A stretch of 64,000 nt of DNA. It comes from Bugula neritina. Lineage: Eukaryota > Animalia > Bryozoa. Made by a program: the position numbers and the translations under genes. The stretch covers positions 372,001-436,000 of the forward strand of contig CAXIUT010000073.1 of NCBI GenBank assembly GCA_964035545.1, written 5' to 3'. The notes under the pieces are model-generated. The model was not told where the DNA came from and did no database searches. It saw nothing but the letters and a program-made list of their open reading frames with translations. Shown here in pieces: positions 9,001 to 56,245 of this stretch; position 1 is the first letter of the stretch; each line of letters opens with the position of its first letter.

Positions 9001-10735
9001 GTGTTTGCAGCAGTTGTCCACTTTTGATTTAGACGCGTCATGGAAACTTTTGTAGTTTTAAATAATATCTCCAAACTCATCACTTGCATGTGTTTATATA
9101 CTTGATAAAGTTTTTCATGCAAAACTTGATGCCTGCTTCAAAGACACCAGTGCTTAAATACTGTGCTAACTGTATTGGCACGTTGCCATGAGATATTTGG
9201 TAATATTTAGCATCACAACATACTCTTCAGAAAGTTAAGAAAATCAGTCTATAGAAAGTTAATGAAATAAACCTACCAGAGAGAGTAAGCCAGATGTAAC
9301 AAGTAGATCCAAAACAAGTTGATTAACAATTGAAGTTGAATTCTCCATGTAGTGAATACTTTAGTCCTAATGTCAAATGCAAACGTCTGCAACCAAATTG
9401 TGTAGACTTCATGAGCTGGTTAGCTGACAGGACTCATTAAAGTTCTTAACTCTTGTGTGTATAGTGATGCCCATCTTGAACTAGAGAGGGCTGACTGAAG
9501 ACTGCTACTTTGTGAAAATTGACAATGCATATTATTATTATTCATTGTTGAGATTCACGACTGCCATAAACAATGATAAAATATTCATTGTTGGTACTAC
9601 TGAGTAGAATAAAATATAATATAATATTATTCTCTGGACAGATAAACAATATCAAATGCATATTATAACATTACCATAAATCTACGGCGCTTCACATCTT
9701 CACTTTTTTCTGCAATGTTATTTCTTTGCAGTTAGAAGTACTAGCTGAATATATGACTATGAAACATAACCCTTCAATTTCATTGCACCAGCACCGATTT
9801 CAATATAGGTGTGTTGGGAGTTATCTTTCCTAAATTTTTGTTCTTGGCGTTTATACGAAACAGACACAGGCTAATATTAGTTTTGTTATTTGCAAAAGTT
9901 TTTCTGTCTGATTTTCCATCAGCAAAAGTTTGCGCCTTCCCGTTATTATGGAAATTCCAGTGCTGCTGGAAGACCTTTGCATTGTACACCCGCCTTTACT
10001 ATTGAATTTAGATGTTTTATTTTCCCATCCCCTCTCCTGCCCCCCTGTCCCCTCTAACAACCAGCAATCCTGACTCATGCGAAATGTGTTATTAAGTTTT
10101 AGAGTTGGACCATGGGCCTACAGTATACGATTTGAAGCTTTATAGTTTACAGGCAGTGGAGATGAGTCACTGCTGAAACCCATTTTATTAGTAGACTATA
10201 TTGCTCTTCAATCATCAGTTTGCATATTAAAACAGAAAGCTCATCTGCAGCGCCATTTCACAGTGTTAAATTTTGCTAGAGTAAAAATTAATTTTAGATG
10301 CCTTTGCAAACATATGAGAAATAAATGAGTCATTTTATGAAAAGAGGTGTTTGCAGCAGTTGTCCACTTTTGATTTAGACGCGTCATGGAAACTTTTGTA
10401 GTTTTAAATAATATCTCCAAACTCATCACTTGCATGTGTTTATATACTTGATAAAGTTTTTCATGCAAAACTTGATGCCTGCTTCAAAGACACCAGTGCT
10501 TAAATACTGTGTTAACTGTATTGGCACGTTGCCATGAGATATTTGGTAATATTTAGCATCACAACATACTCTTCAGAAAGTTAAGAAAATCAGTCTATAG
10601 AAAGTTAATGAAATAAACCCACCAGAGAGAGTAAGCCAGATGTAACAAGTAGATCCAAAACAAGTTGATTAACGATTGAAGTTGAATTCTCCTTGTAGTG
10701 AATACTTTAGTCCTAATGTCAAATGCAAACGTCTG
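1..10735. repeat. Tandem macrosatellite, subfamily A, ~8 monomers of 1345-1346 bp (one 1331 bp); continues past the window start
   Basis: The same marker ORF recurs at 377, 1723, 3054, 4399, 5744, 7089, 8434 and 9780; monomers are near-identical and head-to-tail. Confidence 0.98.
10730..10735 (+). other. Left 6-bp target-site duplication (CGTCTG) of the Polinton
   Basis: CGTCTG occurs once at this position in intact monomers and flanks both element ends (also 25072-25077); 9780+1346+14336+6=25468 restores the array phase exactly. Confidence 0.97.
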
Positions 10736-11301
10736 AGTAGTAGTAGGTGGATGGTCCTGGGACAACCCTTCCCCCGTCGAGTCTTCGACTCTCCGGTGTC
10801 AGGGATTGTCCCAGGACGCATCCACCTACTACTACTCTATTAATATTTTTATTAATTTTTTAGTATTAATTTTAAAAAAAATGTATTAACCTTTCCCCGT
10901 TAAGTTTTCGACTCTCCGGTGTCAGGGATTGTCCCAGGACGCATCCACCTACTACTACTTTATTAATATTTTTATTAATTTTTTAGTATTAATTTTAAAA
11001 AAATGTATTTTCTTTTCACTATTTTTACTTTCCTATTATTAGTAATAGAAATAAATTATTATACGCTGAGAATATAATAATTTATTACCAATAGCGTTTA
11101 AACGTCATAACTTGGAAATGTTGGTAAAGATTCAGTAGATTCGGTTATACTTCCATCATTTGTTGATATAACTAATTTATTACCAACTGCTCCTTGTAAT
11201 TTAGGAATAGCGTAATTATTTATATTATTTATTGTAATAAGATCTGAAATATTTATACCCGTTTCTACAATATTACCATCACTCGAAAGCATTAATAATT
11301 T
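10736..11301 (+). repeat. Left terminal inverted repeat (566 bp) of the Polinton
   Basis: Reverse complement of 24506-25071 with ~8 mismatches seen by eye; contains a 123-bp-period internal direct repeat and a terminal hairpin. Confidence 0.95.
11098..11292 (-). pseudogene. 5'-truncated copy of the C-terminus of the 258-aa fibre-like gene, carried in the left TIR
   Basis: 64 aa matching the last 64 aa of ORF 23933-24709 except at 3 residues; lies wholly inside the TIR. Confidence 0.8.
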
Positions 11302-11302
11302 T

Positions 11303-11824
11303 TTAATTAGTTAAACTATTATAATAAAGTTTTAAATATACGTAATTAAAAGGTAGTGCATTAGTAGCGTCTTTACTCGGTGTATTAACAAGAATTACGT
11401 CATTAGGTTTATGACTCGGATAATTATTCGAAAGAGCTATTGTAAACGAAAAATTATTATTAGCGTTAACAATTTTATTAATATTTATTTTACTATACGG
11501 AGCATTATGTTCAGCACCGCTAATAGTATAAAATATATTTTCTTTAGACTCGTCAAATGGATTTACGCTATTACGAATATGTAAACCTAATTTTTTATCA
11601 GTCCAATATAATTCTTTCGTTTTATTATTAGGTGAACTTTCGTTATAAAATTGTATTAACGCATGCGTTATTTCTATAGATTTATTGACTAAATAATCAT
11701 TAATTAAATCTACCGTAAAGCTATTAATATCTTCGTAATAATAAAATTCGTGTTTAGGTATAATACTCGTAATATACGCTTTATTAGTCGTTATATTGAC
11801 TTTACTAAATTTATAAATATTCAT
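11303..11824 (-). CDS. Polinton 173-aa protein, paralogue of 11821-12348; putative fibre/knob-like virion protein
   Basis: TATAAATG start; shares TKELYWTDK, ISGxEHN and YPSHKP blocks with the neighbouring ORF; beta-rich. Function inferred. Confidence 0.75.
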   Translation of the reverse strand: MNIYKFSKVNITTNKAYITSIIPKHEFYYYEDINSFTVDLINDYLVNKSIEITHALIQFYNESSPNNKTKELYWTDKKLGLHIRNSVNPFDESKENIFYTISGAEHNAPYSKININKIVNANNNFSFTIALSNNYPSHKPNDVILVNTPSKDATNALPFNYVYLKLYYNSLTN

Positions 11825-12348
11825 TTATAATTATAATAAAGTTTTACTAATACGTAATGAAAAGGTAACGCCGCGGTAGTTATTTCACTAGCGGGAGTAT
11901 CGGTTAAAATTACGTTGCTAGGTTTATGACTAGGATAAGTTTTTGATAGCGCTATTGATATTGAAAAGTTTTTATTAGCTTCAATAACTTTATTAACGCT
12001 TATTTCGCTAAACGGGAGATTATGTTCGCTACCGCTTATATCATAAAAAGTATTTTCATCGGATACTCCGAATATTTCAGCGCTATTTCGAACTTGTAAG
12101 CCTATTCTTTTATCAGTCCAATAAAGTTCTTTAGTATTATGAGCTTGTTCACCGTAAAATTGTACTAGTATATTCGTTATTTCAATTGGTTCATCAACTA
12201 AAAAATCTTTAATTAACGTACCTCCGAATCCGCTAGAACTACCGTTGTAATAAGTAAATTCTGATGGAATTATAATATTCGTAATGTACGGTTTTTCATT
12301 TATTATATTAGCCTTAGTCGAATTTCCAAAAATATATACCGAAGTCAT
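11821..12348 (-). CDS. Polinton 175-aa protein, paralogue of 11303-11824; putative fibre/knob-like virion protein
   Basis: TATATAAATG start abutting the protease stop; colinear similarity with the downstream ORF. Function inferred. Confidence 0.75.
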   Translation of the reverse strand: MTSVYIFGNSTKANIINEKPYITNIIIPSEFTYYNGSSSGFGGTLIKDFLVDEPIEITNILVQFYGEQAHNTKELYWTDKRIGLQVRNSAEIFGVSDENTFYDISGSEHNLPFSEISVNKVIEANKNFSISIALSKTYPSHKPSNVILTDTPASEITTAALPFHYVLVKLYYNYK

Positions 12349-12750
12349 TTATATAAGTAAATTATTTATAATTAATTGAGGTGACTCGTGTTTAGACATT
12401 TCTTTAAGCCAATATAAACACAAGTGTCCGCATATAACGGTACCAAATTTTTGTACTCTTTCGGTATTATAAAATATAGGCGGTTTTAAATATTTCATTA
12501 TTTCTAAAGGAGGATGCAATCCAAAACTATCGAAATAATATTTTTTATTTCCGTTTTTATACCAAGCTACCCAATGAGTACCGTTACCCATTAAATTGTC
12601 TAAATTTAATATACCACACTCTTTTTTACGCGGCTTATTGGGTAAATCATTTCTTGAAAATACTCCTCTAAAATTAGGAATTTTTAATTTTTTAATTGCA
12701 AACTCTAATTCAATATTTGAAAGAGCTTTATTCAATAACTTTATATTCAT
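12349..12750 (-). CDS. Adenain-like cysteine maturation protease (Polinton PRO)
   Basis: GTHWVAW (His), YFDSFG (Asp) and Q...CGHLC (Gln/Cys) motifs in 133 aa. Confidence 0.95.
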   Translation of the reverse strand: MNIKLLNKALSNIELEFAIKKLKIPNFRGVFSRNDLPNKPRKKECGILNLDNLMGNGTHWVAWYKNGNKKYYFDSFGLHPPLEIMKYLKPPIFYNTERVQKFGTVICGHLCLYWLKEMSKHESPQLIINNLLI

Positions 12751-15700
12751 TTATATAGCCGTAAGGAACCGTAGTTATACCGTCTTTGAGTATAATTCTT
12801 TTATCATCTTCGGATGATAAAGCTACTTTGTTTATAGTCTCAGCGTACATCGTATGCTTATGACTTCTTAAAACATTCATCATTCTAAGCTGATCTCGCC
12901 GCGTTAATAAACACTCTTTATAATCGTCAAACGTTATACGATTATTACGAGTAGTCTTATTAATTCCTTTACACTTTTTTTCTTCTATACCATTCATTTT
13001 ATACGAGTACAACTTAGCTCTTAGGCCTACAAATTCTGTAATTTGTTTACCGCCGGCTTCGTCCTTAAACATGCCTATTATCTTTTTATTTTTATTATTT
13101 AATAATTTATGATTTTCAGGATAATTACTCGTATCAAATTTATTTTCGATATCCGGTAATATATCCTTATAAAAGTCTTCAGTTTGCACGTGATACATTA
13201 AACTATCCGTATCCGTAAACAGTAACTGAGCTTTATTACCGTATTTAAGTCTAATATACTCGTAATGAAAGTCGTATATTAGAGTTTTACTAATGTCTAA
13301 TATAGCCGCACCCAAATATACGGGTTTATTAAACTTTAATTTCGTTACGTTCATATGAACCGCTATTAAATTTTCGGAAAATATTGTATAACCTTTGAAA
13401 TTAGGTTGATTAGTTAATTTTTTCGCTTCGCTTTCGCTAGTAACTAATTTAACGTCAATTCTATTACGTATATTTTCCATTGTTTTACCAAACACGGAAT
13501 TATTCATAAGCTTAAAGAAATCTTTTTCAAAATCGCTCTGAGCTAAAGTTCTCAGCTTAGTATTTAAATTTATATACTCTTTAAGTTTATTGGATTCGTT
13601 AAAGGTTATACCTTTATGAATTTTTGTAAGCTTTAAGCCGTACATAAGACACTGTTTTAATGCCTCGTAGTGTATAACGTAATTCTTTTTATTATTTAAA
13701 TTTGGAATTAATTTTTCCACTTTATTAATCGTTAATCTCTCGGGGCAGAATGGATAATCTTTATGAAAGTTGTGTAACTCTTTAGAATATTCTAAGTCTA
13801 CTTCCAAGAAGCTAGGTGGAAAATTTAAACTTTTTTCTAAATCTTTACACCGTTTTTCAGTCATCCACTTAAAATTACCCGTAGGTAAATTTTTGGACAT
13901 AGCCCAACCGTATAAATTGTTAGCGTCTAAATAAGTAATATAACTGCTAGGCTCGCTAGCGTTATAATTTTCCATGTACTTATTATTGGCTTTAGCGTAC
14001 CTATGACTGATCATACTTACACCGCCCCTAATAGCCTTTTCAAAGAAGAGTAATTGGTCAACGTCGGTAATTGGATCCAATTCTAGTTTAGTTGTTTTAA
14101 GCATGGCGTCCCAACTTAAGCCGGGAGCCGTATAGTACCAAGCCGGATCTAATTTATAATGCTTTAAACATACGTTTCTAAAGTTTTCAAAAACGTCAGC
14201 CAGCTGTAATACATCAACTTTCATATATAAATCGTGATAGTCTCTAAACGTTTTCATATTAAATTCTCGCCAAACGTTTTGAGCGTGTATATAATCTTCT
14301 TCCGAAATATTTTGCTCGGTTAAGCTCGAATAAAACTTTTCTTTAGGTGGTAAAGACGTTTTGTTTAATACGCTTATATTATTGAAATAGTCGTAAGGAA
14401 ATACTCCTTTTCTTAATAATAAGTCTAATTGTTTTTCCGCGTAATGCTTTTGACAGTCTAATTGTTTTTTTATATAATGTTTTTGCAAATGTTTAAAGTC
14501 ATCGCGTTTTAAATTCGCTACTAAACTCGCTAAACTAGAACTCATAAATTTATACGAGTCTAAAAAGCGAATTTCACGCGTAACTTTAACTTTTTTACCT
14601 TCATTATTGGTAAATTCGTCTACTAATAATTTCTTACTAAAAGATATATATTTTTCTTCGGTATTAGGTATACACGAAGGTTCACCGCCTAAGTTTTTAA
14701 TAAATAAGTGAGCGTCGTAACCCGATAAATTATGAATAAATATTGGATAAAATTTCGGAATTTTATAATTTAAATTACAATTACTATGAGCCGCTCCTCT
14801 ATAGTCTCCGGTTAAGTGGCAGTGATCTCTCACTCTGTCATTACCCAATTTTTCTTCGCATATATAACAATTTTCGGCTAATTCGAAAGACTTTTGTTCG
14901 CTAGTCGAAATTTCCATTGGTTTAGAAAATTTATGTTTTTTATACAAGTTTTTAATGTCGAGTTCTAATAATTTTATAAACAGTTCACCAATATTTTCGT
15001 CTTCGTATTGTTTAGTATAACTTCTGTATTCGCATTCGCCGGTAACGCTCACAATATAATATCCGAAACCCGATGGTTCGTGTTGCTGATATTGATTAGT
15101 ATAGCTTTTCTGAGAATTAGGCTGACAACTTTGTATAGGCTTAGTAAAACATTCAAAGTCCGCGTATACCACAAACGGTACTCTCATACTACGGCAATGG
15201 TAATTAGATTGAAATTTTATTTTATTTTCTATTTTCGGAAAGACTGTAGTTACACCGTCATTCGTTAAACACCAATCTTGATGCTTTTTTAAAGATTCGT
15301 TAGATCGAAATGAATTCATACAATTTACGCAAATATGTTTAGCGCTAACGCGTTTATTTATTTGCGAACCGAGTAATTTATTTAAATTTTTAATATAAGC
15401 GTAATGACTCTTTTTGTCATCGCTTATATAAAATAAATTTATAATTTTACCCTGATTTTTAGTTTTTTTCCATAAATTTATTGTTTTACCGTCCCACGTA
15501 AATACATTAATTCCAAAATCGGAATTAACCTCTTCAAAAGCGTCAATATATTTTTTAGTAGCGGGAAATTCAACGCCTTCCCACGAAAATTTATTAACGT
15601 ATTCTTTATAATTATTAATTCTTTCGGGATGGTTTTTAGGTGTATGAACACTCATTAAAATGGCCCACATAAAGCACTTATTATCCTCATTTTTAGGATT

Positions 15701-16435
15701 TATTACGGCTTTCTTTAATTTAATTTCTTTCGGAAGATCAATCCACGATGATCCGTTAAGAGGTTGATATTTATTAATATTAATTTCCATTTTTTTAATG
15801 GCTTTAAACATCCAGCTACTTCCTTTCGCGTTTAACGAAGCAAAATTTTCTTTTATACGTTCAATTATTTCATCGTATATTTCATTAATATTCGTAGACT
15901 CTAATATAGTTTCAATATTTGATGTAAATGGCATAATTTCTACAATAGTTTCTCCGGTACGTACATTAATTTTTTCCATTTCGCAATACATAAATATTTT
16001 AACTTTTATAGCAGGTTTTAATAATTCTATTACATTTAATTTTACTAGTTTACTAAATGAATTTATATCGTATTTGGGTAAACCCTTAATTTCATGAGTT
16101 TGAAACCAACCTTTAGCGGCTTGTTCTTTAAGCTTAGGCTGATTATATAAAGCCATAATTTTATCCTTAATTGGATTTACAATTTTTGCAATTGGCTTTA
16201 CAATACCCTTAACCCATTTTTTTATATTACGCGTAGTTTGCGTAAATATTTCTCGCATAATTTTTTTTACGGGTATAGGTATTAACGGGGCTTGTCCTAT
16301 ATTTGGAACGGGTTCGTCCATAGGCGATAATAGCCGTATAAGTTCGGCTTTTTTTAATCGAGAATATCGTTTCAATCCTCTTTCTTTAGCTAAAGCCTTT
16401 AAAGCTTTTACGGTAATTTTTGTATTGAACTCCAT
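12728..16435 (-). CDS. polB: Protein-primed family B DNA polymerase (pPolB), 1235 aa
   Basis: Exonuclease YADFE, HNLSGYD and Y..VD; polymerase YLDANNLYG, KLMNNSVFGK and FTDTDS; embedded endonuclease-VII-like CYIC...DHCH..G.YRGAAHSNCN; N-terminal HEH/Rho-N-like motif. Confidence 0.98.
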   Translation of the reverse strand: MEFNTKITVKALKALAKERGLKRYSRLKKAELIRLLSPMDEPVPNIGQAPLIPIPVKKIMREIFTQTTRNIKKWVKGIVKPIAKIVNPIKDKIMALYNQPKLKEQAAKGWFQTHEIKGLPKYDINSFSKLVKLNVIELLKPAIKVKIFMYCEMEKINVRTGETIVEIMPFTSNIETILESTNINEIYDEIIERIKENFASLNAKGSSWMFKAIKKMEININKYQPLNGSSWIDLPKEIKLKKAVINPKNEDNKCFMWAILMSVHTPKNHPERINNYKEYVNKFSWEGVEFPATKKYIDAFEEVNSDFGINVFTWDGKTINLWKKTKNQGKIINLFYISDDKKSHYAYIKNLNKLLGSQINKRVSAKHICVNCMNSFRSNESLKKHQDWCLTNDGVTTVFPKIENKIKFQSNYHCRSMRVPFVVYADFECFTKPIQSCQPNSQKSYTNQYQQHEPSGFGYYIVSVTGECEYRSYTKQYEDENIGELFIKLLELDIKNLYKKHKFSKPMEISTSEQKSFELAENCYICEEKLGNDRVRDHCHLTGDYRGAAHSNCNLNYKIPKFYPIFIHNLSGYDAHLFIKNLGGEPSCIPNTEEKYISFSKKLLVDEFTNNEGKKVKVTREIRFLDSYKFMSSSLASLVANLKRDDFKHLQKHYIKKQLDCQKHYAEKQLDLLLRKGVFPYDYFNNISVLNKTSLPPKEKFYSSLTEQNISEEDYIHAQNVWREFNMKTFRDYHDLYMKVDVLQLADVFENFRNVCLKHYKLDPAWYYTAPGLSWDAMLKTTKLELDPITDVDQLLFFEKAIRGGVSMISHRYAKANNKYMENYNASEPSSYITYLDANNLYGWAMSKNLPTGNFKWMTEKRCKDLEKSLNFPPSFLEVDLEYSKELHNFHKDYPFCPERLTINKVEKLIPNLNNKKNYVIHYEALKQCLMYGLKLTKIHKGITFNESNKLKEYINLNTKLRTLAQSDFEKDFFKLMNNSVFGKTMENIRNRIDVKLVTSESEAKKLTNQPNFKGYTIFSENLIAVHMNVTKLKFNKPVYLGAAILDISKTLIYDFHYEYIRLKYGNKAQLLFTDTDSLMYHVQTEDFYKDILPDIENKFDTSNYPENHKLLNNKNKKIIGMFKDEAGGKQITEFVGLRAKLYSYKMNGIEEKKCKGINKTTRNNRITFDDYKECLLTRRDQLRMMNVLRSHKHTMYAETINKVALSSEDDKRIILKDGITTVPYGYINEYKVIE

Positions 16436-16492
16436 TTATATAGTAAAAAAATCTTTAAACTATAAAATCAATTTTTTAATAAAAAATTAGTT

Positions 16493-16729
16493 TTATACGT
16501 CTTCGAGAATTTTATTTATTTGCACTTTAAGTTTAGTTACTTTACGCCGCGATGTTAAATTTTTATTAAAATGTTTAAATAATTTATCTCGATCTTCATT
16601 TGACACAGAATTAATATTTAAGGTAGAATAATCGGTTAATCGCATAAATGTATGTTCGGGAAGAGGTATATATTTTTTTTGTTTAGCTTGAGCGATTAGT
16701 TTATCAAGTAATTCAATAGTAAACTCCAT
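16493..16729 (-). CDS. Small hypothetical Polinton protein (~78 aa from MEFTIELL)
   Basis: Open frame in a gene-dense element; the internal ATG at 16729 is preceded by TATAAT, a variant of the element's start motif. Confidence 0.55.
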   Translation of the reverse strand: MEFTIELLDKLIAQAKQKKYIPLPEHTFMRLTDYSTLNINSVSNEDRDKLFKHFNKNLTSRRKVTKLKVQINKILEDV

Positions 16730-16771
16730 ATTATAAAATAATAAAATAATAAAAATCATTTTTTTATATAA

Positions 16772-17251
16772 ATGGACTTTCGACGAGAAAAATTAGAACT
16801 CTTAAACGATGAAATTATTAAATTAGAAAACGAATACGAACAAAAACTTAATTGTTTTAATTGGTTATCGAAATCGTTAAAAATAATTTCTGGATTATGC
16901 GGTACAACGAATTTAATATGCGGTGTTATTATTACGGTGTTATTAAACGCTAACGTTACTAAACAAACGTTATTACCATTATCTATAATAGTAAGTATAA
17001 TGAGCGTAATTACTACTTCTATTTCTTCTCAAGATACTAAATTAATTAAATCTACGTTAATGTATTTAGATATATATACGTTTATAAAAGATTCAAAATT
17101 AGAAATTAATTCTATGTTATCAAAATTTTTAAGCGACTCTCATATAGACGAACGAGAGTACGACGCTATAACCGAAAAATATAAAAATATTAATAACGTA
17201 ATATCGAATAAAAAAAGCGACATAATAGTCGCTCGTAACAACGTTTGTTAA
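16772..17251 (+). CDS. Polinton membrane protein (coiled coil plus two hydrophobic helices), resembling the adintovirus 'GasderminX'-type ORF
   Basis: TATATAAATG start; two hydrophobic segments; C-terminal SK.L.D..I...EY..I..KY pattern recalled from Polinton ORFs. Family assignment not verified. Confidence 0.6.
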   Translation: MDFRREKLELLNDEIIKLENEYEQKLNCFNWLSKSLKIISGLCGTTNLICGVIITVLLNANVTKQTLLPLSIIVSIMSVITTSISSQDTKLIKSTLMYLDIYTFIKDSKLEINSMLSKFLSDSHIDEREYDAITEKYKNINNVISNKKSDIIVARNNVC

Positions 17252-17409
17252 TTACTTGCAAAATGCAATTAATTAAAAAAGGGAGTTCAATACAAAAATA
17301 TCCGTATAGGCTGCTAATAGCGCGTAATAATCGGTCCTAAGAGCGAGTTACGTGTGCCGTATTATACGCACATTTATATATGTTTTCTTTAACTATAATA
17401 TTTTTTATT

Positions 17410-17802
17410 TTAATGTAAAGTGTCATTTCTTCTTTTTTCTATTTCGTCTTCGGCGTATTTTAATTTAGTAAAGAATGACGGTATTCTAGCCGCCGCGTAA
17501 TTCATTAAACCTACGTTAAGTTCTTGAATTATTTCTTTAGTTTTGTAAATAGTTTTTATTTTTAATTTTCCATCATTTTCTTTATAAATAATTTCTCTTT
17601 TATTAGTATAAACGCGTTCTTCGAGTAAACCACGTTTGTTAGACGGATTAGTTATTTCGTCTAATATATTAAAATTTTTATATATAATTATTTCTTTTAA
17701 ATCACCGCTTTCGTACATTCGTTTTTCGTATTCGGAAGTTTTATATATCGTTTCGGTAATTGGGGTGCCGTCGAGGCTTTTATAAGTAATTACTGTTGAC
17801 AT
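17410..17802 (-). CDS. Hypothetical Polinton protein, 130 aa
   Basis: TATATAAATG start; element-typical codon usage; no recognised motif. Confidence 0.7.
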   Translation of the reverse strand: MSTVITYKSLDGTPITETIYKTSEYEKRMYESGDLKEIIIYKNFNILDEITNPSNKRGLLEERVYTNKREIIYKENDGKLKIKTIYKTKEIIQELNVGLMNYAAARIPSFFTKLKYAEDEIEKRRNDTLH

Positions 17803-17821
17803 TTATATATGTTTTCTTAAA

Positions 17822-18391
17822 CTATAACAGCATACCTAAAAGAGGAATGTTTTTAAACGGACTATTCGGACCTAAAATTAAACCTTCGCCTTTTATATAG
17901 CTAGAACCTTGTTTTAAATATAAACCGTTACCCTTCATTAAATTAGACGACGCGACTGGTTTTAAAGTAATAGAACCGTTTAAATTAGGTTCTACGGAAC
18001 ATACGCATCCGCCTCTTTTCAAATAAAGACCTTTACCTTTAATAGCTCTTTCGACTCCGGCGCTAGCGGCTCCTGAAAGTACGCCGGGTATAATAGTTTT
18101 TAATAGCGTAGGTATTACTCTCGTGGCTATACCCAATAGAGCTCCTAAAAATCCTCCGCTCATTGACGCGTTAGTTTTTACTAATGACGGAGACATTTCG
18201 AGCGTTATATTTTTTTTATTCGCGTTTAACGCTTTTAAAATATTATCGTTTTGCGTTTTCGTAACGACTAGTTTATCATTTCCGCTTTCGAGAGGCAATT
18301 TAATAACGCAACCCTTACCGCTTCTATAAGCGTTCATTATTTTTTGTTTTTGCGCCTGCGGCACATTTCCTATAATTTCGCAATAACCCAT
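17822..18391 (-). CDS. Putative virion core/membrane-lytic precursor with several adenain cleavage sites
   Basis: MSGG/FLGALLG amphipathic segment and repeated (I/M)KGxG-L motifs; adjacent to the capsid genes. Confidence 0.7.
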   Translation of the reverse strand: MGYCEIIGNVPQAQKQKIMNAYRSGKGCVIKLPLESGNDKLVVTKTQNDNILKALNANKKNITLEMSPSLVKTNASMSGGFLGALLGIATRVIPTLLKTIIPGVLSGAASAGVERAIKGKGLYLKRGGCVCSVEPNLNGSITLKPVASSNLMKGNGLYLKQGSSYIKGEGLILGPNSPFKNIPLLGMLL

Positions 18392-18403
18392 TTATATAAT
18401 ACA

Positions 18404-19162
18404 TTAAACTTCTCTTAAATGAAATCTTATTGAAAGTTGTTCACCGCTAAGATCTAATAAATTACCTTTTTGATCGGTTACCGTAACGGTTAACGTCTTA
18501 ATATATTTAACGTGAACGGGTAAGTATATTAAATTATGAGGTTTTTCTATTATTTTATATCCCGGACTAACGCTCGGAAAAAATGAATAAATAACGGGTT
18601 TATAAGTACCATCGATATAACTTCCGTTAATACAATCAACTTGTACGTGTATAGCGTTTATATTTAAAATATTTACTATGTTCGTAGCTTCGATATAAGG
18701 TTGATTATATATCGCCGCGTTAAAACCTAAAACGTCTCTTAGAGAATTTTCAACGTTAAAATCTATTCGGTAATTTGGTTTTAATTCAAGTATAATTCTA
18801 AAAGTTACTTTATTAGCTTGTAAAGTAATACCGTTTCTATTACCCCCCTCTTTTACTATTTCGTCTTGAATAGCTTCTTCTAGTTGATCTAATTCGTACA
18901 CTCCGACTGGTAACGAAACTAAATGCCACGTAGTACCACCGTCTTTAGACCATCTATAGGAATTTCTATCGGTACTAATGTTTGGAAAAGAATAAAACGT
19001 ATCCAAACTAATAAGACACATTTCGTATTTTTTATTTTTATTTAACTCTATAGGCGGATTAAGTTGAGTAATTATTCTCGTTTTAGTATCGGTAACTCCT
19101 ATAGTCATTGTTTGTTTAGAGGCCGTATTATCAGCAATTTCTCTTAATAATTTATTTTCCAT
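18404..19162 (-). CDS. Minor capsid protein (penton, single jelly-roll)
   Basis: 252 aa, directly downstream of the MCP; PIEL...YEM, SFPNI, VLGF and P..LIYLPV...DQ.G..LDL.GE...I..HL pattern typical of Polinton pentons. Confidence 0.88.
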   Translation of the reverse strand: MENKLLREIADNTASKQTMTIGVTDTKTRIITQLNPPIELNKNKKYEMCLISLDTFYSFPNISTDRNSYRWSKDGGTTWHLVSLPVGVYELDQLEEAIQDEIVKEGGNRNGITLQANKVTFRIILELKPNYRIDFNVENSLRDVLGFNAAIYNQPYIEATNIVNILNINAIHVQVDCINGSYIDGTYKPVIYSFFPSVSPGYKIIEKPHNLIYLPVHVKYIKTLTVTVTDQKGNLLDLSGEQLSIRFHLREV

Positions 19163-20437
19163 TTATATAACTTTTAAATTATTTCCATCGGAACTGAGAG
19201 ACATAGTTTTATCCGATAGAATTAGCGCGTAAGCTTGAGTATCAGCCGGTACATTTTGACTAAACTGAACTCTTAATTGAATATCGGCTACGCTACTTTT
19301 AAGAGCCTCGCTTTGCTTACTAACGTCTATTACGAACAAAGCGTAAAGATCTTTATATTCCGAAGGTAATACGTTTGAATATGCGATTAGCTCGTTTATA
19401 CCGTAATATTCTCCGCAAAACTTAGAAGCGTCTCCGTACACTCTACTAAACTTCATTTTAGCAAAATCTATATCATAATCAACTTCGGGATACCGCTCAC
19501 TATTTAGCATCGCGTATATACTTTTAACGTTAACGTGATCAAATACTGCCGGATTAGCCGTTTGACTTTCAGTCTTATTCGTTTGAAAACCTACGATAAT
19601 ATATTTAGGTTTTTCCGTATCTCCTCTAGAACCCAAACGCCACGTAAAATTAGTAGTTTGCGGCACTGCAATACTATCACACCATCTAGATCTATAAATT
19701 AGGGGTAGTTGCGCCTTACTCTCTATAATTTTATAGAGTTTATGCTTCATTTCAAAACTAGGCGTTACGTGAGGCATCCACCACGACACTTTATCTAACG
19801 TTATTTTTCCCGCATCTACACCGTTTGCTCTAAATATAGCGTTATCGTTGGTATCGCGTACTAGCGTTAGTTGATGTTTTATACCGTATAATACTTTTTC
19901 GTAATCGTCAGCAAACCCGAACAAATGTCTGAGATCCACTTTAATACTAAAAGTACCTTTAGGATCTGGCTTTTGTATAATATAAATTTGACGCGCGTTA
20001 AAACCTAAATTAGCGGCGGCAGCGGTTGCGGTAGTATCTTTTGACCACAACTGATTAAGACCTCTCGACTTACCGTAGTCGTCGGGATAAGTTAGTAAAC
20101 CCATCATGGTCGAAGCGTGTCCGGGATTATTTATATATTCCAAGTCGTGTCCGTCGAGTTGATATCTAATACTTTTAAACAAATAAGCCATACCGTTATT
20201 AATTAGCGTTACTAAGTCGGCGTCGGCGTAAGCGGTTCCATCGGCTTTAGTTAAACGACCTTCGATAATCAAATAACTTTTACTCGGCTGAACGTACAAA
20301 TCTTGCTGATTAATAACTATTCTAATTTCACTGGGAGTATTTAAATTCGTTCCCGTTACGGGTTCGTATTCGTGTACCTGATCACGCTCTACGCTCGTAT
20401 CGAGTACAATTTTTTGTGTAATGTTTAGAGAATCCAT
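19163..20437 (-). CDS. Major capsid protein (double jelly-roll)
   Basis: 424 aa; EIRI.I...D....P..SYL.IEG, LFGF..DY.K, KPKYIIVGFQT, LNSERYP and FVIDVSKQ motifs of Polinton MCPs. Confidence 0.92.
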   Translation of the reverse strand: MDSLNITQKIVLDTSVERDQVHEYEPVTGTNLNTPSEIRIVINQQDLYVQPSKSYLIIEGRLTKADGTAYADADLVTLINNGMAYLFKSIRYQLDGHDLEYINNPGHASTMMGLLTYPDDYGKSRGLNQLWSKDTTATAAAANLGFNARQIYIIQKPDPKGTFSIKVDLRHLFGFADDYEKVLYGIKHQLTLVRDTNDNAIFRANGVDAGKITLDKVSWWMPHVTPSFEMKHKLYKIIESKAQLPLIYRSRWCDSIAVPQTTNFTWRLGSRGDTEKPKYIIVGFQTNKTESQTANPAVFDHVNVKSIYAMLNSERYPEVDYDIDFAKMKFSRVYGDASKFCGEYYGINELIAYSNVLPSEYKDLYALFVIDVSKQSEALKSSVADIQLRVQFSQNVPADTQAYALILSDKTMSLSSDGNNLKVI

Positions 20438-20458
20438 TTATTATAGTAAAATAATTTC

Positions 20459-20782
20459 TTAATAAGCTATAGCTTGTCCGCTTCCTTCTAAAATATTACT
20501 TATATTACTATTGTTATTAAGTACTTTTAATATATTTTTAGTTTGATTAAGTTTTTGTAATATAGCTTGACTTTTAGCGTTTAACTTTTTTTGCCTTCTT
20601 TTTTTAATCGCGTTAACAATTTTTTCACCGGCCGCGGTACCCGCTTTAGCTATAGCCTTTTTACCTAATTCTCTTACGCTGGAATTACTAGCTATTTTAG
20701 TTACTACATTCCTAATGGTATCAAATATTCCGCCACCCGCGTAGTGTCTTTGTAATCGTTGTCTTTTATCGTAAACGTACAT
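20459..20782 (-). CDS. Basic putative core (DNA-condensing) protein, 107 aa
   Basis: K/R-rich; AGGG-IFD protease-like site followed by an amphipathic helix; TATAATAAATG start. Confidence 0.7.
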   Translation of the reverse strand: MYVYDKRQRLQRHYAGGGIFDTIRNVVTKIASNSSVRELGKKAIAKAGTAAGEKIVNAIKKRRQKKLNAKSQAILQKLNQTKNILKVLNNNSNISNILEGSGQAIAY

Positions 20783-20785
20783 TTA

Positions 20786-21592
20786 TTATACGAGAATACT
20801 TTTATAATAGTCACGAGTAATAATTTTCATTCTAAGTAATTCGTCTAATATAGACACAATTTCGTTTCGTACTTCCGTATTTCCGGCTTTAGCGCTAGAA
20901 ATTAAAAGTTCGAGTCATTCTACTAAAGCGTTAGGATCAGACGATAAATATACTACTCCATCACCGACTTGCCTTTTAGCTTTTTTACTATCAGCGAGTT
21001 TCGCTCTTTGAGGATATAATTGTTCCCAAATAGGTCTAACAATATTTTTCCATTTTTCACTATTTTTATCTATGGGACCGTGTTTACTTTGATATATAGC
21101 GCCGCTATTATCGAGTATATTAGCGTAATTCGCTAAATCATTATCATCGTATCCTATAGGCGTTTTACGCGTTAAAAGACTTAAAAGTCCTCTAGTCGCC
21201 GGATATTCTTCGTTTTCAAAAATTATTTTACCATCGTTAAAGCTTATAGGTTTTGTACCAATAACGTGTCTATTACCATCCCACTTTACGTTATAAGCGC
21301 CGGGTTCTAAGCCAGCTAAAACGTTTTGAGTAAATTCGTCTAAATTTATAACTCCATCCGTTATAGCCGGTTGAACATTATAATTGGGTAATGTAAGCAA
21401 TTGTTTTAACGCGTCAGTCGTTTGAGCTTGCGAAGTCGTTACGGGTTCAAAATATTTTTCTTGAGCTATAGCCGCATTTAATTCTCGCTCGCGTTCTCGT
21501 TTAAAATTTTCTTTTAATTTATTCTTTCGAGAAATAAAATCTTGTACGGTTTTATCTCTTTTTATAGGGTCGTAAATCTTTAGGTAACTCAT
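20786..21592 (-). pseudogene. Conserved Polinton protein (268 codons) interrupted by an in-frame TGA at 20915-20917
   Basis: The frame continues past the stop: DPNALVE*LELLISSAKAGNTEVRNEIVSILDELL...TAA(20786), matching the common Polinton motif DPNxLVxRLxLL...AGN...NEI. Confidence 0.85.
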
Positions 21593-21605
21593 TTATTATA
21601 TATTA

Positions 21606-21795
21606 ATTTGTGTCCACTTTTGTGTCTAGTGTCCACATTTGTGTCCACTTTTGTGTCTAGTGTCCGCATTTGTGTCCACTTTTGTGTCTAGTGTTCACAT
21701 TTGTGTCCACTTTACGTTTAATTTGTGTCCACTTTTTATGGACACAAATGTGTTTGTGTCCACTTTTTATGGACACAAATGTGTTTGTGTCCACT
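21606..21795. repeat. 31-bp-period minisatellite (TTTGTGTCCAC core) with two hairpins, inside the Polinton
   Basis: ATTTGTGTCCACTTTTGTGTCTAGTGTCCAC x3, then TTTGTGTCCACTTTTTATGGACACAAATGTG x2. Confidence 0.9.
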
Positions 21796-23158
21796 ATAAT
21801 CGTTCTAAAACGTTTAAATTTACCCAAGAGTTTTGAGAATCGGGATAACCTAACCATTTTACTAAAGCCTTTTTACCTTTCTTTTTAATTACGCGTTCTA
21901 TTCTATACATTTCTTGACTCGTCTTTTGTAATTCCTGTTCGTAAAAAGATCCTTGAATTTCTTCCCCACCCGAGTCAGTTAATTTATAAGTAGTCGGATT
22001 AGTATATAATATTTTACTTATAGTAAACACCTTCTCCGTCCATCTAACGGTATAACCTTTTTCAAACGTTCGTTTCTTACGCGGTATACGTACTCTATCA
22101 CCTATAGCGAATTTAGGTTTAGAAGGCGCTGGCAAGTTTGGATATAATTTCACGCGTACTTTATTTTCGTTAGAAGGATTACTAGCTTCAATCGGTGTCA
22201 TTCCGATAGACGAATGTTTAGTCTCGTTATATTGTTTTATTAAATTTTTTAGTACGTCTATATATTTATAAGTATTATTAGCCGAAAAATATTTAAACAT
22301 TCGCTCTTTCATTGTTCTATTCCACCTCTCTACTACGCTAGACTTTTCTTCATTTTCCGTAGAATATAAGTCTATTAAAGACTTTACGTCTTTGTTATAA
22401 AACTCTTTTCCCTTGTCAACCCATAAATGTTGTGGCTTACGACGAGTTAAAATTGTTTTTAAAGCTAAAGCCGTCGCTTTTCCAGTCTTATTTTTTAAAG
22501 GTATTATCCAACCGTATTTTGAAAACACGTCTATTACCGTTAGTAAATATTTATAACCGTTATTAAATTTAGCGAATTCAGTCATATCAACCAAGTCGGC
22601 CGCCCAAATATTATCGATACCCGATACCCAAACTCGTCTTTTACGAAATTTTTTTTGTACGGGTTTATGCAATTCTTCGGCTAACTCGTTCGTCCATCCC
22701 CATCCTAAGCGTTTTTTCGCACCTATTATTGCCGAGGCGAAACGACTGTGTCGCTGTTCGGAGGGCGTAGGATTAGGTATAGCTTTCAGTTCGTCTAGCA
22801 TATTTTTATCGCATATTTCGTTTCTAGTTTTAGTATCTTTATTAAGCGCGTAACACACGTCGTGTCTCATGGCTATAGCGTCGTCTCGATCTACCGGTTT
22901 ACTCCATTCTTTAGGAGTCATGTCGTCATTTAAACGCTTATTTAATTTAGTACCCGGTCCTAAAAAATTCTGGCCTGGATAATGCAATTCGAAGGGTAAA
23001 TTATTTATTAAATTATTAGCTAAACCCGACCCAACGAATGTAGTTTTTTTACATCCGCATTGACCGCAATTACCGTAACCCATTAGTCTATTATTTTTAC
23101 TTACTCTCTTTTCGTAATTAAGAGTTTTCGTTTTAGTTTTACACTTACAACAATACAT
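21794..23158 (-). CDS. int: Zn-ribbon / parvovirus-type phospholipase A2 / retroviral-like (rve) integrase / chromodomain fusion, 454 aa
   Basis: CxxC..CxxC N-terminus; FLGPGT...D...HD.CY (PLA2); WAADLVDM, WVDKGKEF and VERWNRT (DDE); C-terminal IERV...LVKWLGY...NSW chromodomain. Confidence 0.95.
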   Translation of the reverse strand: MYCCKCKTKTKTLNYEKRVSKNNRLMGYGNCGQCGCKKTTFVGSGLANNLINNLPFELHYPGQNFLGPGTKLNKRLNDDMTPKEWSKPVDRDDAIAMRHDVCYALNKDTKTRNEICDKNMLDELKAIPNPTPSEQRHSRFASAIIGAKKRLGWGWTNELAEELHKPVQKKFRKRRVWVSGIDNIWAADLVDMTEFAKFNNGYKYLLTVIDVFSKYGWIIPLKNKTGKATALALKTILTRRKPQHLWVDKGKEFYNKDVKSLIDLYSTENEEKSSVVERWNRTMKERMFKYFSANNTYKYIDVLKNLIKQYNETKHSSIGMTPIEASNPSNENKVRVKLYPNLPAPSKPKFAIGDRVRIPRKKRTFEKGYTVRWTEKVFTISKILYTNPTTYKLTDSGGEEIQGSFYEQELQKTSQEMYRIERVIKKKGKKALVKWLGYPDSQNSWVNLNVLERL

Positions 23159-23173
23159 TTATTATAATAAATG
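23156..23173. promoter_or_regulatory. Perfect 18-bp palindrome CATTTATTATAATAAATG supplying the start motif and ATG for both divergent genes (integrase, ATPase)
   Basis: Self-complementary; CAT at 23156-58 and ATG at 23171-73. Confidence 0.8.
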
Positions 23174-23929
23174 GAAATAGAAAATCTTTCGTGGAAAAAC
23201 GAAATTAATCGTAATAATAATCCTTTACTTCCTAAAAGCATAAGAGGTCTTATCGTTGGAAAGTCTGGATGCGGTAAAACTACGTTACTTTGTAACTTAC
23301 TATTACAACCTAATTGGCTCGATTACGATAAACTTATGATTTACGGTAAAAGTCTTTCTCAACCCGAATATATAAATATGAGGAAGGCTTTCGAACGTAA
23401 ATTAACTAAAGAAGAAATTTTAAATTTTTTTAAAAATAGTGACGCGATAATAAATTCGGGTATAAACGTAAATCGTGTTTTAAAAAATAGTAGGGGTAAC
23501 GGTAATATAGACGCTGAATTTATCGAATCTAGTGACGACGTTTATGATCCTAGCGAATTAGACGTTAATAATAAAAATTTAATAATATTCGATGATTTAA
23601 TGTTGGAAAAACAAAAAACTTGCGAAAGTTATTACGTAAGAGGACGACACAATAACGTCGATTGTTTTTATTTATCGCAAAATTATTTTAAGCTGCCTAG
23701 AAATACTATTCGAGAAAACGCTAATTTTATTTGCTTATTTCCTCAAGACGGAAAAAATTTAAATCATATATATCAAGATCACGTAAACGGAGATTTAACG
23801 TTAAACGAATTTAAAAACTTTTGTTATAAAGGATGGCAAAAACCTCACGGCTTTATTACTTTAGATCTTTCTTCCTCAAAAAATAATGGGAGATATAGAC
23901 ACGGGTTAGACGAATTTTATATACCGTAA
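23171..23929 (+). CDS. A32/FtsK-like genome packaging ATPase
   Basis: Walker A GKSGCGKT, Walker B LIIFDD, and RGRH..(V)..FYLSQ motif. Confidence 0.96.
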   Translation: MEIENLSWKNEINRNNNPLLPKSIRGLIVGKSGCGKTTLLCNLLLQPNWLDYDKLMIYGKSLSQPEYINMRKAFERKLTKEEILNFFKNSDAIINSGINVNRVLKNSRGNGNIDAEFIESSDDVYDPSELDVNNKNLIIFDDLMLEKQKTCESYYVRGRHNNVDCFYLSQNYFKLPRNTIRENANFICLFPQDGKNLNHIYQDHVNGDLTLNEFKNFCYKGWQKPHGFITLDLSSSKNNGRYRHGLDEFYIP

Positions 23930-23932
23930 TAA

Positions 23933-24709
23933 ATGAGTGTTTATAAATTCGGAGGAAGCAAAAAAACAAAAATAGATACAAAAAAATTCGTTTTAATAAA
24001 CGGTAGTAGTACTCTTACGGGTACGTTAGATATGGGTGAAAATAAAATATCTAGAGTTATTAATCCGGTTGACGATCAAGACGTAGCCACAAAAAAATAC
24101 GTTGACGATACGAGTATGCCTAAAATATTACATCCTATTAATCAGTTAACTATATCAACCGACGATGGACGCGTTATAGATAGCGATTTAAAAGTTGATG
24201 ATGTCGTTACAAAAACTAATGTATCTAATTACGCCGTACCTCTTATACGAGACCCGAGTGAAAAATTAACCATTTCAACTACTTCGGGTAATGTTGCGGA
24301 TAGTAGTTTAAGCGTTAGCGATGTTGTTACGACTAGTAATATAAATAATTTAGCTATACCAAAAATACAACCCGCGAATGAAAAATTAACCGTTTCGACT
24401 ACTTCGGGTAATGTCGCGGATAGTAGTTTAAGCGTTAGCGATGTTGTTACGACTAGTAATATAAATAATTTCGCTATGAATAAAATACAACCAATAATCG
24501 GAGGTAAATTATTAATGCTTTCGAGTGATGGTAATATTGTAGAAACGGGTATAAATATTTCAGATCTTATTACAATAAATAATATAAATAATTACGCTAT
24601 TCCTAAATTACAAGGAGCAGTTGGTAATAAATTAGTATTATCAACGAATAATGGAGGTATAACCGAATCTACTGAATCTTTACCAACATTTCCAAGTTAT
24701 GACGTTTAA
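23933..24709 (+). CDS. Fibre/shaft-like protein, 258 aa, with five ~40-aa repeats; 3' end lies inside the right TIR
   Basis: LDMGENKI...P...QDVATKKYVD tail-fibre-type motif; repeats of P..(KL)T.ST..G.V.DS...V.DVVT..N..NYA. Confidence 0.75.
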   Translation: MSVYKFGGSKKTKIDTKKFVLINGSSTLTGTLDMGENKISRVINPVDDQDVATKKYVDDTSMPKILHPINQLTISTDDGRVIDSDLKVDDVVTKTNVSNYAVPLIRDPSEKLTISTTSGNVADSSLSVSDVVTTSNINNLAIPKIQPANEKLTVSTTSGNVADSSLSVSDVVTTSNINNFAMNKIQPIIGGKLLMLSSDGNIVETGINISDLITINNINNYAIPKLQGAVGNKLVLSTNNGGITESTESLPTFPSYDV

Positions 24710-25071
24710 ACGCTATTGGTAATAAATTATTATATTCTCAGCATATAATAATTTATTTCTGTTACTAATAATAGGAAAATAAAAATAGTGAAAAGAAAAT
24801 ACATTTTTTTAAAATTAATACTAAAAAATTAATAAAAATATTAATAAAGTAGTAGTAGGTGGATGCGTCCTGGGACAATCCCTGACACCGGAGAGTCGAA
24901 AACTTAACGGGGAAAGGTTAATACATTTTTTTTAAAATTAATACTAAAAAATTAATAAAAATATTAATAGAGTAGTAGTAGGTGGATGCGTCCTGGGACA
25001 ATCCCTGACACCGGAGAGTCGAAGACTCGACGGGGGAAGGGTTGTCCCAGGACCATCCACCTACTACTACT
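24506..25071 (-). repeat. Right terminal inverted repeat (566 bp) of the Polinton
   Basis: Reverse complement of 10736-11301. Confidence 0.95.
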
Positions 25072-49624: not shown

Positions 49625-50258
49625 TAGTGGGGGTGCCAACATGCAAAAATGGGCGGGTGGAGCACATCAATACTAACCTTTGTTGCTATATATCACTGCA
49701 AAGCTAACATTCTACTGATCTCAGATCTGCGAGTACCTTTTTTGTATCTGGGGGGGTTCTCTCGTGAGAGGGGTGGATATACAGGGGTTCAGCATTTTTC
49801 AAGGGGGGACTATGGAACTCTAAATATTTAATTTTTTGAGTAGTTTAGGTTTGAAATTAAAAATATTTTCAAGAAAGGCTGTACACATATGAAACTTTCT
49901 CTAACAAAATTTTTGACCAAAAATAAAAAATTGGGCGGAGCCTATAATACGACAAACTACTTTTTTGCATATACCTGGTATTCTCTAAACTGCTACTTTT
50001 CTGTTCTAGCATTTAGAATGTTGATTTTTGGTATGAAAATACTCTATTGTGTTTTGATAATGCTCTCCGGTTTTCATTACATTCTGAACTATATAACTTC
50101 TTTCCCAACCATAACAAATAAAAAACATAAAACGGGAGTTATCTCCTCCGTTATAAATTATTGCATTTCTACCCAATAATTTTGCTCTTTGTTGATAGAA
50201 ACAACATCAGCATAATAAAAATGTATTCTTAGTGTATTTATATTAGCTTATTGGCTTA
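49625..50258 (+). repeat. Left TIR (~634 bp) of the Academ element
   Basis: Reverse complement of 55612-56245, colinear with no net indel and scattered substitutions. Confidence 0.92.
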
Positions 50259-50577
50259 TTTTGAATAATTGCTTACAATCAATACTATTAATATTCAATA
50301 TTTACTGTATAAATTAAGTGTCAGCAATAATTAACAGACCACTAATATTCGATTTTTTATCCATAAGTATAGTAACATAAAATATGGTTCATAAAAAAGT
50401 TATATTATGATTTCAGCATCATAAGCAATTACTATGCTCTTTTATATCAGATATTGGTTGAAATTTTTAATTGTATTTATTTATAAATAAGATAGTATTT
50501 AAATTTTAATTTACAATAGATCAAGCTTTATTACAAAGTTTTGTTATCTCTAGCGTTTATATACCAAAATAAATGTA

Positions 50578-55442: not shown

Positions 55443-55611
55443 GATATGTGATGATTCACATTTTCTTGAACTGAGAATACTGAAGCATGCTGCCTTTACA
55501 TGATGTCAAGGTCAAGGGTATTAGGCAATTTCAAGAGATGAAAAATCTCAAATTTGGGTGAAAGGGGAATTATTCAAATTTTCTATTCAAAATGAGCTAA
55601 CATAAATACAC

Positions 55612-56245
55612 TAAGCTAATAAGCTAATATAAATACACTAAGAATACATTTTTATTATGCTGATGTTGTTTCTATCAACAAAGAGCAATATTATTGGGTA
55701 GAAATGCAATAATTTATAACGAAGGAGATAACTCCCGTTTTATGGTTTTTATTTGTTATGGTTGGGAAAGAAGTTATATAGTTCAGAATGTAATGAAAAC
55801 TGGAGAACATTATTAGAACACAATAGGGTATTTTCATACCAAAAATCAACATTCTAAATGCTAGAACAGAAAAGTAGCAGTTTAGAGAATATCAGGTATA
55901 TGCAAAAAAGTAGTTTGTCATATTATAGGCTCCGCCCACTTTTTTATTTTTGGTCAAAAATTTTGTTAGAGAAAGTTTCATATGTGTACAGCCTTTCTTG
56001 AAAATATTTTTAATTTCAAACCTAAACTACTCAAAAAATTAAATATTTAGAGTTCCATAGTCCCCCCTTGAAAAATGCTGAACCCCTGTATATCCACCCC
56101 TCTCACGAGAGAACCCCCCCAGATACAAAAAAGGTACTCGCAGATCTGAGATCAGTAGAATGTTAGCTTTTCAGTGATATATAGCAACAAAGGTTAGTAT
56201 TGATGTGCTCCACCCGCCCATTTTTGCATGTTGGCACCCCCACTA
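55612..56245 (-). repeat. Right TIR (~634 bp) of the Academ element
   Basis: Ends ...GGCACCCCCACTA, the reverse complement of the left terminus TAGTGGGGGTGCC. Confidence 0.92.

Follow-up and report, generated by a model that had tools for sequence, protein, structure and literature searches.

The 64,000-nt stretch of Bugula neritina DNA analysed here (the window, whose positions serve as coordinates throughout) contains a 14.3-kb Polinton inserted at 10736–25071 within an array of a 1346-bp satellite. It was found that 14 of the 15 genes of this element start within TAAATG, mostly with a TATA extension directly upstream. In related elements, a TATA-rich start was combined with a second, early-type motif before the genes of the family-B DNA polymerase (polB) and of small proteins. 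Judged from sequence, this arrangement is probably an early/late promoter code read by a helper virus of the Nucleocytoviricota; the element would then be parasitic on that virus in the manner of a virophage. A poxvirus, an asfarvirus, a mimivirus relative or an iridovirus would all fit as the helper.

Start-codon motif of the element

All of the 14 start codons that the original prediction had placed in TAAATG were found to lie in it. Twelve of them carried exactly TATATAAATG or TATAATAAATG, and looser forms were seen at 11824 and 23933 (Table 1). TATA(A)TAAATG occurred 14 times in the element, compared with 0.32 ± 0.51 times (maximum 2) in 300 dinucleotide shuffles, and 12 of these copies were at gene starts. 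The other two opened no long open reading frame (ORF): that at 12299 (minus strand) was followed by 9 codons, and that at 17373 (minus strand), a copy of the region upstream of 17802, by 3 codons, which is likely the remnant of a decayed gene. TAAATG alone was barely enriched (25 copies versus 17 ± 4, maximum 27), and 11 of the 25 copies lay away from gene starts. The signal lies in the TATA extension and in its placement at the ATG, not in TAAATG itself.

The compactness described in the original prediction was also observed. Neighbouring ORFs were separated by –23 to 201 nt, with 10 of the 14 gaps at 21 nt or less when the 15th gene was started at 16729. The motif lay partly within the coding sequence of the upstream gene at 12750, 12348, 19162 and 11824; that of the protease was inside polB, with an overlap of 23 nt. 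The predicted absence of introns agreed with the continuity of the ORFs, which was its sole basis. Searches with Pfam (15 ORFs), with NCBIfam (12 element ORFs) and by fold (one orphan) recognised no RNA polymerase, as had been stated, and no other poxvirus-like accessory gene among the ORFs of the element. The 15th gene, which lacks TAAATG, could start at 16759 (TATATAAAAAAATG) or at 16729 (TATAATATG). An early motif before the latter start was dropped, being at –29 and containing the alternative in-frame ATG at 16759.

The TATA of the window starts ended 2–4 nt before the ATG, and it is therefore not a TATA box of RNA polymerase II (Pol II). The ATGs of the integrase and ATPase genes were back to back and 12 nt apart, within an 18-bp palindrome, so that there is no room for an upstream core for each gene outside coding sequence. 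The corresponding distance was 20–45 nt in 11 related loci. When the palindrome was looked for in viral contigs, two long ORFs were opened at 1 of 23 sites, which gave no support.

Start motif in the related elements

The relatives comprised 80 metagenome loci (the best 80 of 242), with major capsid proteins (MCPs) 43–59% identical to that of the element. They yielded 190 homology-supported, de-duplicated starts. Loci L006, L083 and L086 (same contig as L001) and L122 (same as L084) were left out of the counts, as were starts with 8 or fewer mismatches from one already counted and starts with less than 60 nt upstream.

TAAAT(G) over the start codon, the form expected of a poxvirus late promoter, was the rule in the window (14 of 15 starts). 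Exact TAAATG was present at only 5 of 190 starts in the relatives, below the shuffled expectation. What the relatives shared was TATA in the last 14 nt before the ATG, found at 110 of 190 starts as compared with 56 ± 6 after shuffling and with 84 of 1230 internal Met codons. A T followed by three to five A preceded the ATG at 112 of the 190 starts, the common form being TATA..T(A3–5)ATG in an AT-rich run. Both the poxvirus-intermediate TAAA and the asfarvirus-type TATATA fitted the window and the relatives (z of 6 to 11 versus shuffles), while the poxvirus late form fitted the window only. TCTA, the promoter word of Cafeteria roenbergensis virus, was at chance level (1/15 window starts and 23/190 in the relatives). 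The mimivirus late consensus fitted a minority of starts (2/15 in the window, 22/133 in the relatives with 7.9 expected).

The poxvirus label of the original prediction was thus too narrow, because the conserved form fits the TATA(TA) initiator of asfarviruses and pacmanviruses and the intermediate TAAA of poxviruses equally. Its broader sense held: with the early motif of the relatives and the Pol II-like contrast lineage described below, the motif is most likely an initiation element of large-DNA-virus type.

A second, early-type motif

The element carries AAAATTGA, the word known from early promoters of giant viruses, once only, and this copy is 40 nt upstream of the polB ATG. In the relatives, the more general WWWWTGAW was observed with its T at –45 to –30 (mode –36/–35). 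It preceded 7 of 13 polB starts, 21 of 41 starts of a small family resembling HEH/NUMOD1 proteins, and 3 of 3 starts of a third small family. The total was 31 of 57 starts in these 'early' families, compared with 1 of 133 others (capsid, ATPase, protease, integrase and other genes), with 5.0 ± 2.1 in shuffles and with 4 of 57 for the reverse complement. The Pfam matches of the HEH/NUMOD1-like family were below the cut-off.

Two further observations were made on these upstream regions. A TTAAAGA-like word was seen 26–36 nt before the ATG at 8 of 57 'early' starts and at none of the 133 others; in the window it was at 16450–16460. A DUF2738 gene, which we take to encode a single-stranded DNA-binding protein of the type found in nucleocytoplasmic large DNA viruses (NCLDVs), was found in L027:11330–11980 (Pfam E of 5e-21) and L082:988–1755, with an early-type word at –57 and –40, respectively.

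Parallels in giant viruses

The two motifs have published counterparts in NCLDVs. The early promoter of mimivirus is described as AAAATTGA, absent before late genes, in the same account that puts the Pol II TATA box 25–30 nt before the RNA start (PMC5294985). For pacmanvirus and its transpoviron, AAAATTGA is reported as the early motif and TATATA as the late one, and AAAATTGA is also mentioned for some iridoviruses (PMC11788076). Late RNAs of African swine fever virus (ASFV) are reported to start in TA(+1)TA with AU slippage, and its early motif to end about 10 nt before the start (PMC7163114). In the description of vaccinia promoters in PMC11980589, the early ones are A-rich and broken by TG, the intermediate ones have TAAA, and the late ones have TAAAT(G) with a T ten bases upstream. 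In the Phaeocystis globosa virus virophage (PgVV), the presence of AAAATTGA before the DNA polymerase gene was presented as an argument for helper dependence (10.1101/2022.07.28.501842).

IMG/VR was scanned for the layout seen at polB, AAAATTGA-N20–30-TATATAAATG, and of at least 120 matches 80 were examined. The layout opened a first-Met ORF of at least 60 aa at 47 of these 80 loci, as compared with 3.9% of all ATGs. Contigs of giant-virus metagenome-assembled genomes (MAGs) accounted for 24 of the 80 loci, 16 of them at starts. Twelve products were picked for Pfam. Seven were a capping enzyme (two cases), Rpb3/11, TBP, TFIIB, topoisomerase IA or ThyX, and the other five were one phage capsid and four proteins without a match. 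These starts and products indicate that the layout is a real giant-virus gene start and is not poxvirus-specific. The sharing of promoter motifs with large DNA viruses, which is a trait of virophages, was therefore seen both with the published NCLDV motifs and with giant-virus contigs. As a separate observation, L089, a contig with polB and integrase, stands in IMG/VR under the name of a giant-virus MAG, which may reflect mis-binning or a real association.

Polintons with different, Pol II-like upstream regions

A contrast group was formed by L084, L085 and L123, which are one lineage (capsid ~33% identical), together with L109 and L110. The sequence before starts was 58% AT in this group as against 83% otherwise. 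TATA in the last 14 nt was found at 2 of 35 of its starts, as compared with 13 of 13 in the window and 77 of 145 in 14 long relatives. The median gap between genes was 157 nt, versus 12 nt in the window and 37 nt in the relatives. In the three related loci L084, L085 and L123, a TATAAA box was present ~45 nt before the ATPase gene. TCAGT, an arthropod cap-site motif, was not enriched (6/35 in the contrast group versus 4/13 in the window). The contrast group lacks the start motif, which is therefore not a property of all Polintons. By these sequence features its promoters look Pol II-like, which suggests that there are two promoter types among animal-type Polintons. In the ATPase tree, which had no named reference members, the Pol II-like trio formed an unresolved fork with the clade of the element (98/99 for the joint group, on a long branch), so that the tree gives no direction for any promoter switch.

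Proposed mechanism and alternative explanations

If the code is read by a Nucleocytoviricota helper, RNAs would start in the TATA or TAAA a few bases before the ATG, as in asfarviruses and poxviruses. The early factor of the helper would read WWWWTGAW, so that polB and the small DNA-binding protein would be expressed first. Capsid, ATPase, protease and integrase would follow from the initiator alone, and one palindrome would drive both the integrase and the ATPase gene. A helper with a nuclear stage would have easier first access to a chromosomal copy.

The alternative that survives best, although we regard it as rather doubtful, is an autonomous nuclear virus that is transcribed by host Pol II from compact promoters. 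Here, AAAATTGA would replace the TATA box ~25 nt before a TATA initiator, leaders would be a few bases long, and the structural genes might be activated by a factor that the element itself encodes. In the early motif, the G was 22–31 nt before the first TATA-like site, which is close to the TATA-to-start spacing of Pol II. In poxviruses (vaccinia), the spacing between early motif and start is somewhat shorter than this, and iridoviruses, in some of which AAAATTGA is reported, use host Pol II early. The element is also integrated, with many variant copies in seven distinct runs of the host (contigs), and its relatives encode the small HEH/NUMOD1-like DNA-binding protein. This family was not recognisable in the window copy, however. 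TATAAAWA at –60 to –26 of structural genes was found at 0 of 13 starts in the window and 2 of 145 in the relatives. Two Pol II promoters would not fit into the 12 bases between the back-to-back ATGs without entering coding sequence, and the Polintons with Pol II-like promoters look different.

A helper that is specifically a poxvirus, with the motif as its late promoter giving poly(A) leaders, is a narrower form of the helper reading and is counted within it; it appears unlikely. In its favour are the TAAATG at 14 of 15 window starts, the T ten bases upstream of TAAAT at 10 of 14 (background T of 0.37, p 0.01), and the report of Maverick-related elements in entomopoxvirus occlusion bodies (PMC11296320). 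Yet TAAATG is rarer than in shuffles at the relatives' starts, polB, reported as an early gene in vaccinia (PMC11980589), carries it too, and the window offered no recognised poxvirus-like accessory gene.

It is very unlikely that the motif is a translation context only, that is, an A-rich start with TAA-ATG stop–start coupling on long or polycistronic RNAs of an AT-rich genome: A did occupy each of the last three bases before the ATG in 80–90% of the relatives' starts, and the upstream gene stops in the motif's TAA at 12348 and 19162, before the motif at 23933 and across the ATG at 11824, but coupling explains at most 4 of 14 starts and is impossible for back-to-back genes, TATA at –14 to –4 exceeds composition (110 versus 56 ± 6), the strand-specific and class-specific word at –35 is left unexplained, and at 10 of 57 'early' starts this word contains an ATG that a long leader would have to bypass.

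Several results weigh against reading the code as that of a Nucleocytoviricota helper. Eight distant AT-rich contigs resembling polinton-like viruses (PLVs) shared the TATA-rich starts (51/84), and AT-rich small viruses in general may share part of the signal. Only one gene in the window has the early motif, and 26 of 57 'early' starts in the relatives were without WWWWTGAW. The three 'early' families were picked after the data had been seen and the loci are related, so that the Fisher p of 8e-19 is overstated. In held-out loci, which were fetched later and scored for the strict motif, it was found at 2 of 7 early starts (polB 2/5 full-length, small family 0/2) and at 0 of 21 others (p ~0.06), a result that agrees in direction and is not significant alone. 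Among the held-out polB misses, 2 of 3 carried either the motif changed at one base or a copy at –53; the strict motif was also seen at the one DUF2738-like gene and at 4 of 13 unassigned ORFs. The IMG/VR layout scan had no scrambled-first-motif control. T-run terminators were not enriched after stops. No helper virus was found, and the motifs matched no specific helper. Stony-coral polintoviruses are reported to show patterned expression of hallmark genes whatever the treatment (PMC11131425). For some animal Polintons at least, this speaks against strict silence, and it is also in line with an autonomous virus.

Other measures were uninformative. T-runs of the terminator type were mildly depleted in coding strands (z of –1.8 to –2.8). 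AATAAA was not avoided in the element (50 versus 45 expected), and it was also undepleted in the nearby nuclear transposon (6 versus 5.6). Counts of upstream ATGs were confounded by the first-Met rule.

Comparison with known systems

The element resembles animal Mavericks/Polintons (Polintoviricetes, 'adintoviruses') in its ~14-kb length, long inverted repeats and 6-bp duplication, and in having a predicted polB, an rve integrase with chromodomain, an A32 ATPase, an adenain-like protease, a double jelly-roll capsid and a PLA2-like domain. It has the AAAATTGA-type word before the DNA polymerase gene in common with PgVV (Gezel-14T), and also short, AT-rich stretches between genes and the lack of a recognised RNA polymerase. 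PgVV differs in its algal host, in its capsid lineage, and in having a tyrosine recombinase and TVpol in place of rve integrase and polB; its helper is described as known and its dependence as shown, and a late motif was not found in it. Pacmanvirus lostcity with its transpoviron, and the ASFV promoters, offer the same combination of early AAAATTGA and late TATATA or TA(+1)TA initiator, and this pair is reported to be shared by Pacmanvirus lostcity with its satellite DNA. The transpoviron, unlike the element, has no capsid, does not integrate and has an amoebal host.

The entomopoxvirus PLVs (AHEV_PLV1/2, CBEV_PLV1) have an animal host as the element does, and are described as inferred parasites of a cytoplasmic large DNA virus. 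In the mavpol2 capsid clade, one of their lineages is reported to form a divergent branch. Unlike in the element, no rve integrase is reported as detected in AHEV_PLV1, and the link of these PLVs to their viruses comes from occlusion bodies (PMC11296320). The main text of that paper contains no promoter analysis. Mavirus and the endogenous Cafeteria virophages share an rve integrase, host integration and, if the prediction for the element is right, polB with the element, and are summarised as being reactivated by a giant virus (PMC8097293). They are unlike the element in their virophage-class capsid and their TCTA late motif, which was not enriched here. A virophage-like role of vertebrate Mavericks is put forward as a speculation, with no promoter data in that account (PMC8097293), and helper-dependent PLVs are described in algae (10.1101/2022.07.28.501842). 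In the literature covered (main texts, top results, few subscription journals), no promoter analysis of integrated animal Polintons was found, and the word 'promoter' was absent from the main text of three Polinton preprints of 2024–2026.

Gene content and genomic setting

The features of the element are listed in Table 1. With long terminal inverted repeats and a target-site duplication of 6 bp, its ends are those of a Polinton. The matches to rve integrase, Pox_A32 and PF21738 were above the Pfam cut-off, and that to Peptidase_C5 was below it. The 1235-aa ORF was 51–55% identical to ORFs at the same position in relatives. Pfam returned only Rho_N and Endonuclease_7 domains for it and no polymerase domain, and the name polB is given because of its size, its position and the Polinton anatomy. 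The minor capsid protein was likewise named because of its size and position. The 189-aa basic ORF is likely a virion core protein, and the 258-aa repeat-rich ORF is likely fibre-like. No family, fold or distant homologue was found for the orphans at 17802, 12348 and 16729, the structure model of the last being of low confidence. The sole homologues found for the 12348 gene were 61–89% identical.

Table 1. Coordinates of the Polinton and its features in the window
Feature	Position	Strand	Remarks
Polinton/Maverick element, AGTAGT...ACTACT termini	10736..25071	.	repeat and sequence inspection
Left target-site duplication, CGTCTG	10730..10735	+	6 bp; right copy 25072–25077
Left terminal inverted repeat, ~566 nt	10736..11301	.	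99% identical to the right one
Right terminal inverted repeat	24506..25071	.	overlaps end of 23933 gene
Orphan ORF, 173 aa	11303..11824	-	paralogue of 12348 gene; start TTATAAATG overlaps stop of upstream gene
Orphan ORF, 175 aa	11821..12348	-	start TATATAAATG, its TAA is the protease stop
Adenain-like cysteine protease	12349..12750	-	Peptidase_C5, E 0.003, below cut-off
Family-B DNA polymerase (predicted), 1235 aa	12728..16435	-	start TATATAAATG
Early-promoter word AAAATTGA	16468..16475	-	40 nt before polB ATG
Orphan ORF, 78–88 aa, no TAAATG	16493..16759	-	back to back with 16772 across 12 nt if started at 16759
Conserved ORF, 159 aa, hydrophobic stretch	16772..17251	+	14-member family among the loci; start TATATAAATG
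Second copy of 17802 upstream motif, then 3-codon ORF	17371..17392	-	likely remnant of a decayed gene
Orphan ORF, 130 aa, beta-meander and helices	17410..17802	-	no fold match
Conserved basic ORF, 189 aa	17822..18391	-	
Minor capsid protein (putative)	18404..19162	-	start TATATAAATG, its TAA is the MCP stop
Double jelly-roll major capsid protein	19163..20437	-	PF21738, E 7e-57; start TATAATAAATG
Conserved basic ORF, 107 aa	20459..20782	-	start TATAATAAATG
Conserved ORF, 225 aa	20915..21592	-	premature stop in this copy, ~290 aa in relatives; start TATAATAAATG
PLA2-like domain fused to rve integrase with chromodomain	21794..23158	-	Pfam
18-bp perfect palindrome	23156..23173	.	contains both integrase and ATPase start motifs
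A32-like packaging ATPase	23171..23929	+	Pox_A32, E 2e-8
Repeat-rich ORF, 258 aa	23933..24709	+	start GTAATAAATG directly after ATPase stop

The MCP matched PF21738 and animal Polinton homologues, and Pfam did not return a virophage-type capsid family for it, so by capsid type the element lies outside Virophaviricetes. The named MCP homologues were from one scallop and one bryozoan, and the host is therefore taken to be an animal. The element may belong to the group 2 or alpha Maverick-Polintons: it has a PLA2-like domain, which in Maverick-Polintons is described as characteristic of alpha or common in group 2. In the window (21794–23158), the PLA2-like domain and the integrase form one ORF. 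In all 10 relatives having both (L001, L010, L015, L024, L027, L029, L034, L038, L069 and L091), the two ORFs overlapped by 25–109 nt in the –1 frame, with a slippery-type heptamer in 7 of 10. Integrase is likely to be expressed there through a programmed –1 frameshift or through slippage on an A-run.

Inside each inverted repeat, the terminal sequence was duplicated in tandem with a period of ~123 nt (10736–11010 and 24800–25071). Between the 21592 gene and the end of the integrase (21600–21800) lay short tandem GTGTCCAC-rich repeats, which varied in length among copies. The satellite extended across the window (1–64000) in 32 copies of two variants, of 1346 bp before ~39.9 kb and 1341 bp after it. 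A second insertion into it, at 49625–56245, was a 6.6-kb DNA transposon with 634-nt inverted repeats, whose long ORF (50578–54417, minus strand) had no NCBIfam match. Satellite depth was very high in run X10. Free virus, suggested by low satellite depth in runs X1 and X2, was dropped as a possibility because run X11 was also without part of the satellite.

The observed/expected (o/e) CpG ratio was 2.03 in the element versus 0.42 in the satellite and 0.41 in the neighbouring transposon. At 31% GC, this value (10735–25072) was higher than in any of 12 relatives checked (0.63–1.77); one further relative had a ratio of 0.14. The high CpG o/e of the element reflects recent arrival or life outside host methylation, so that its sequence has not been moulded in the way of host DNA, and is neutral between the promoter readings.

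Implications

If the code is read by a helper, this would explain why Polintons are quiet in genome and cell studies. A wider possibility, which we hold only tentatively, is that a widespread clade of Polintons in aquatic invertebrates consists of provirophages with a full early/late code, woken only by infecting Nucleocytoviricota and serving as an inherited antiviral defence, with a sister lineage that switched to Pol II. The promoter code would offer a way of sorting Polintons by lifestyle from sequence only. If the reading is true, promoter type would sort animal Polintons into helper-dependent and autonomous ones and would point to undiscovered large DNA viruses of these animals. Elements fixed in animal genomes would then join those of protists and the entomopoxvirus satellites as cases of the virophage lifestyle.

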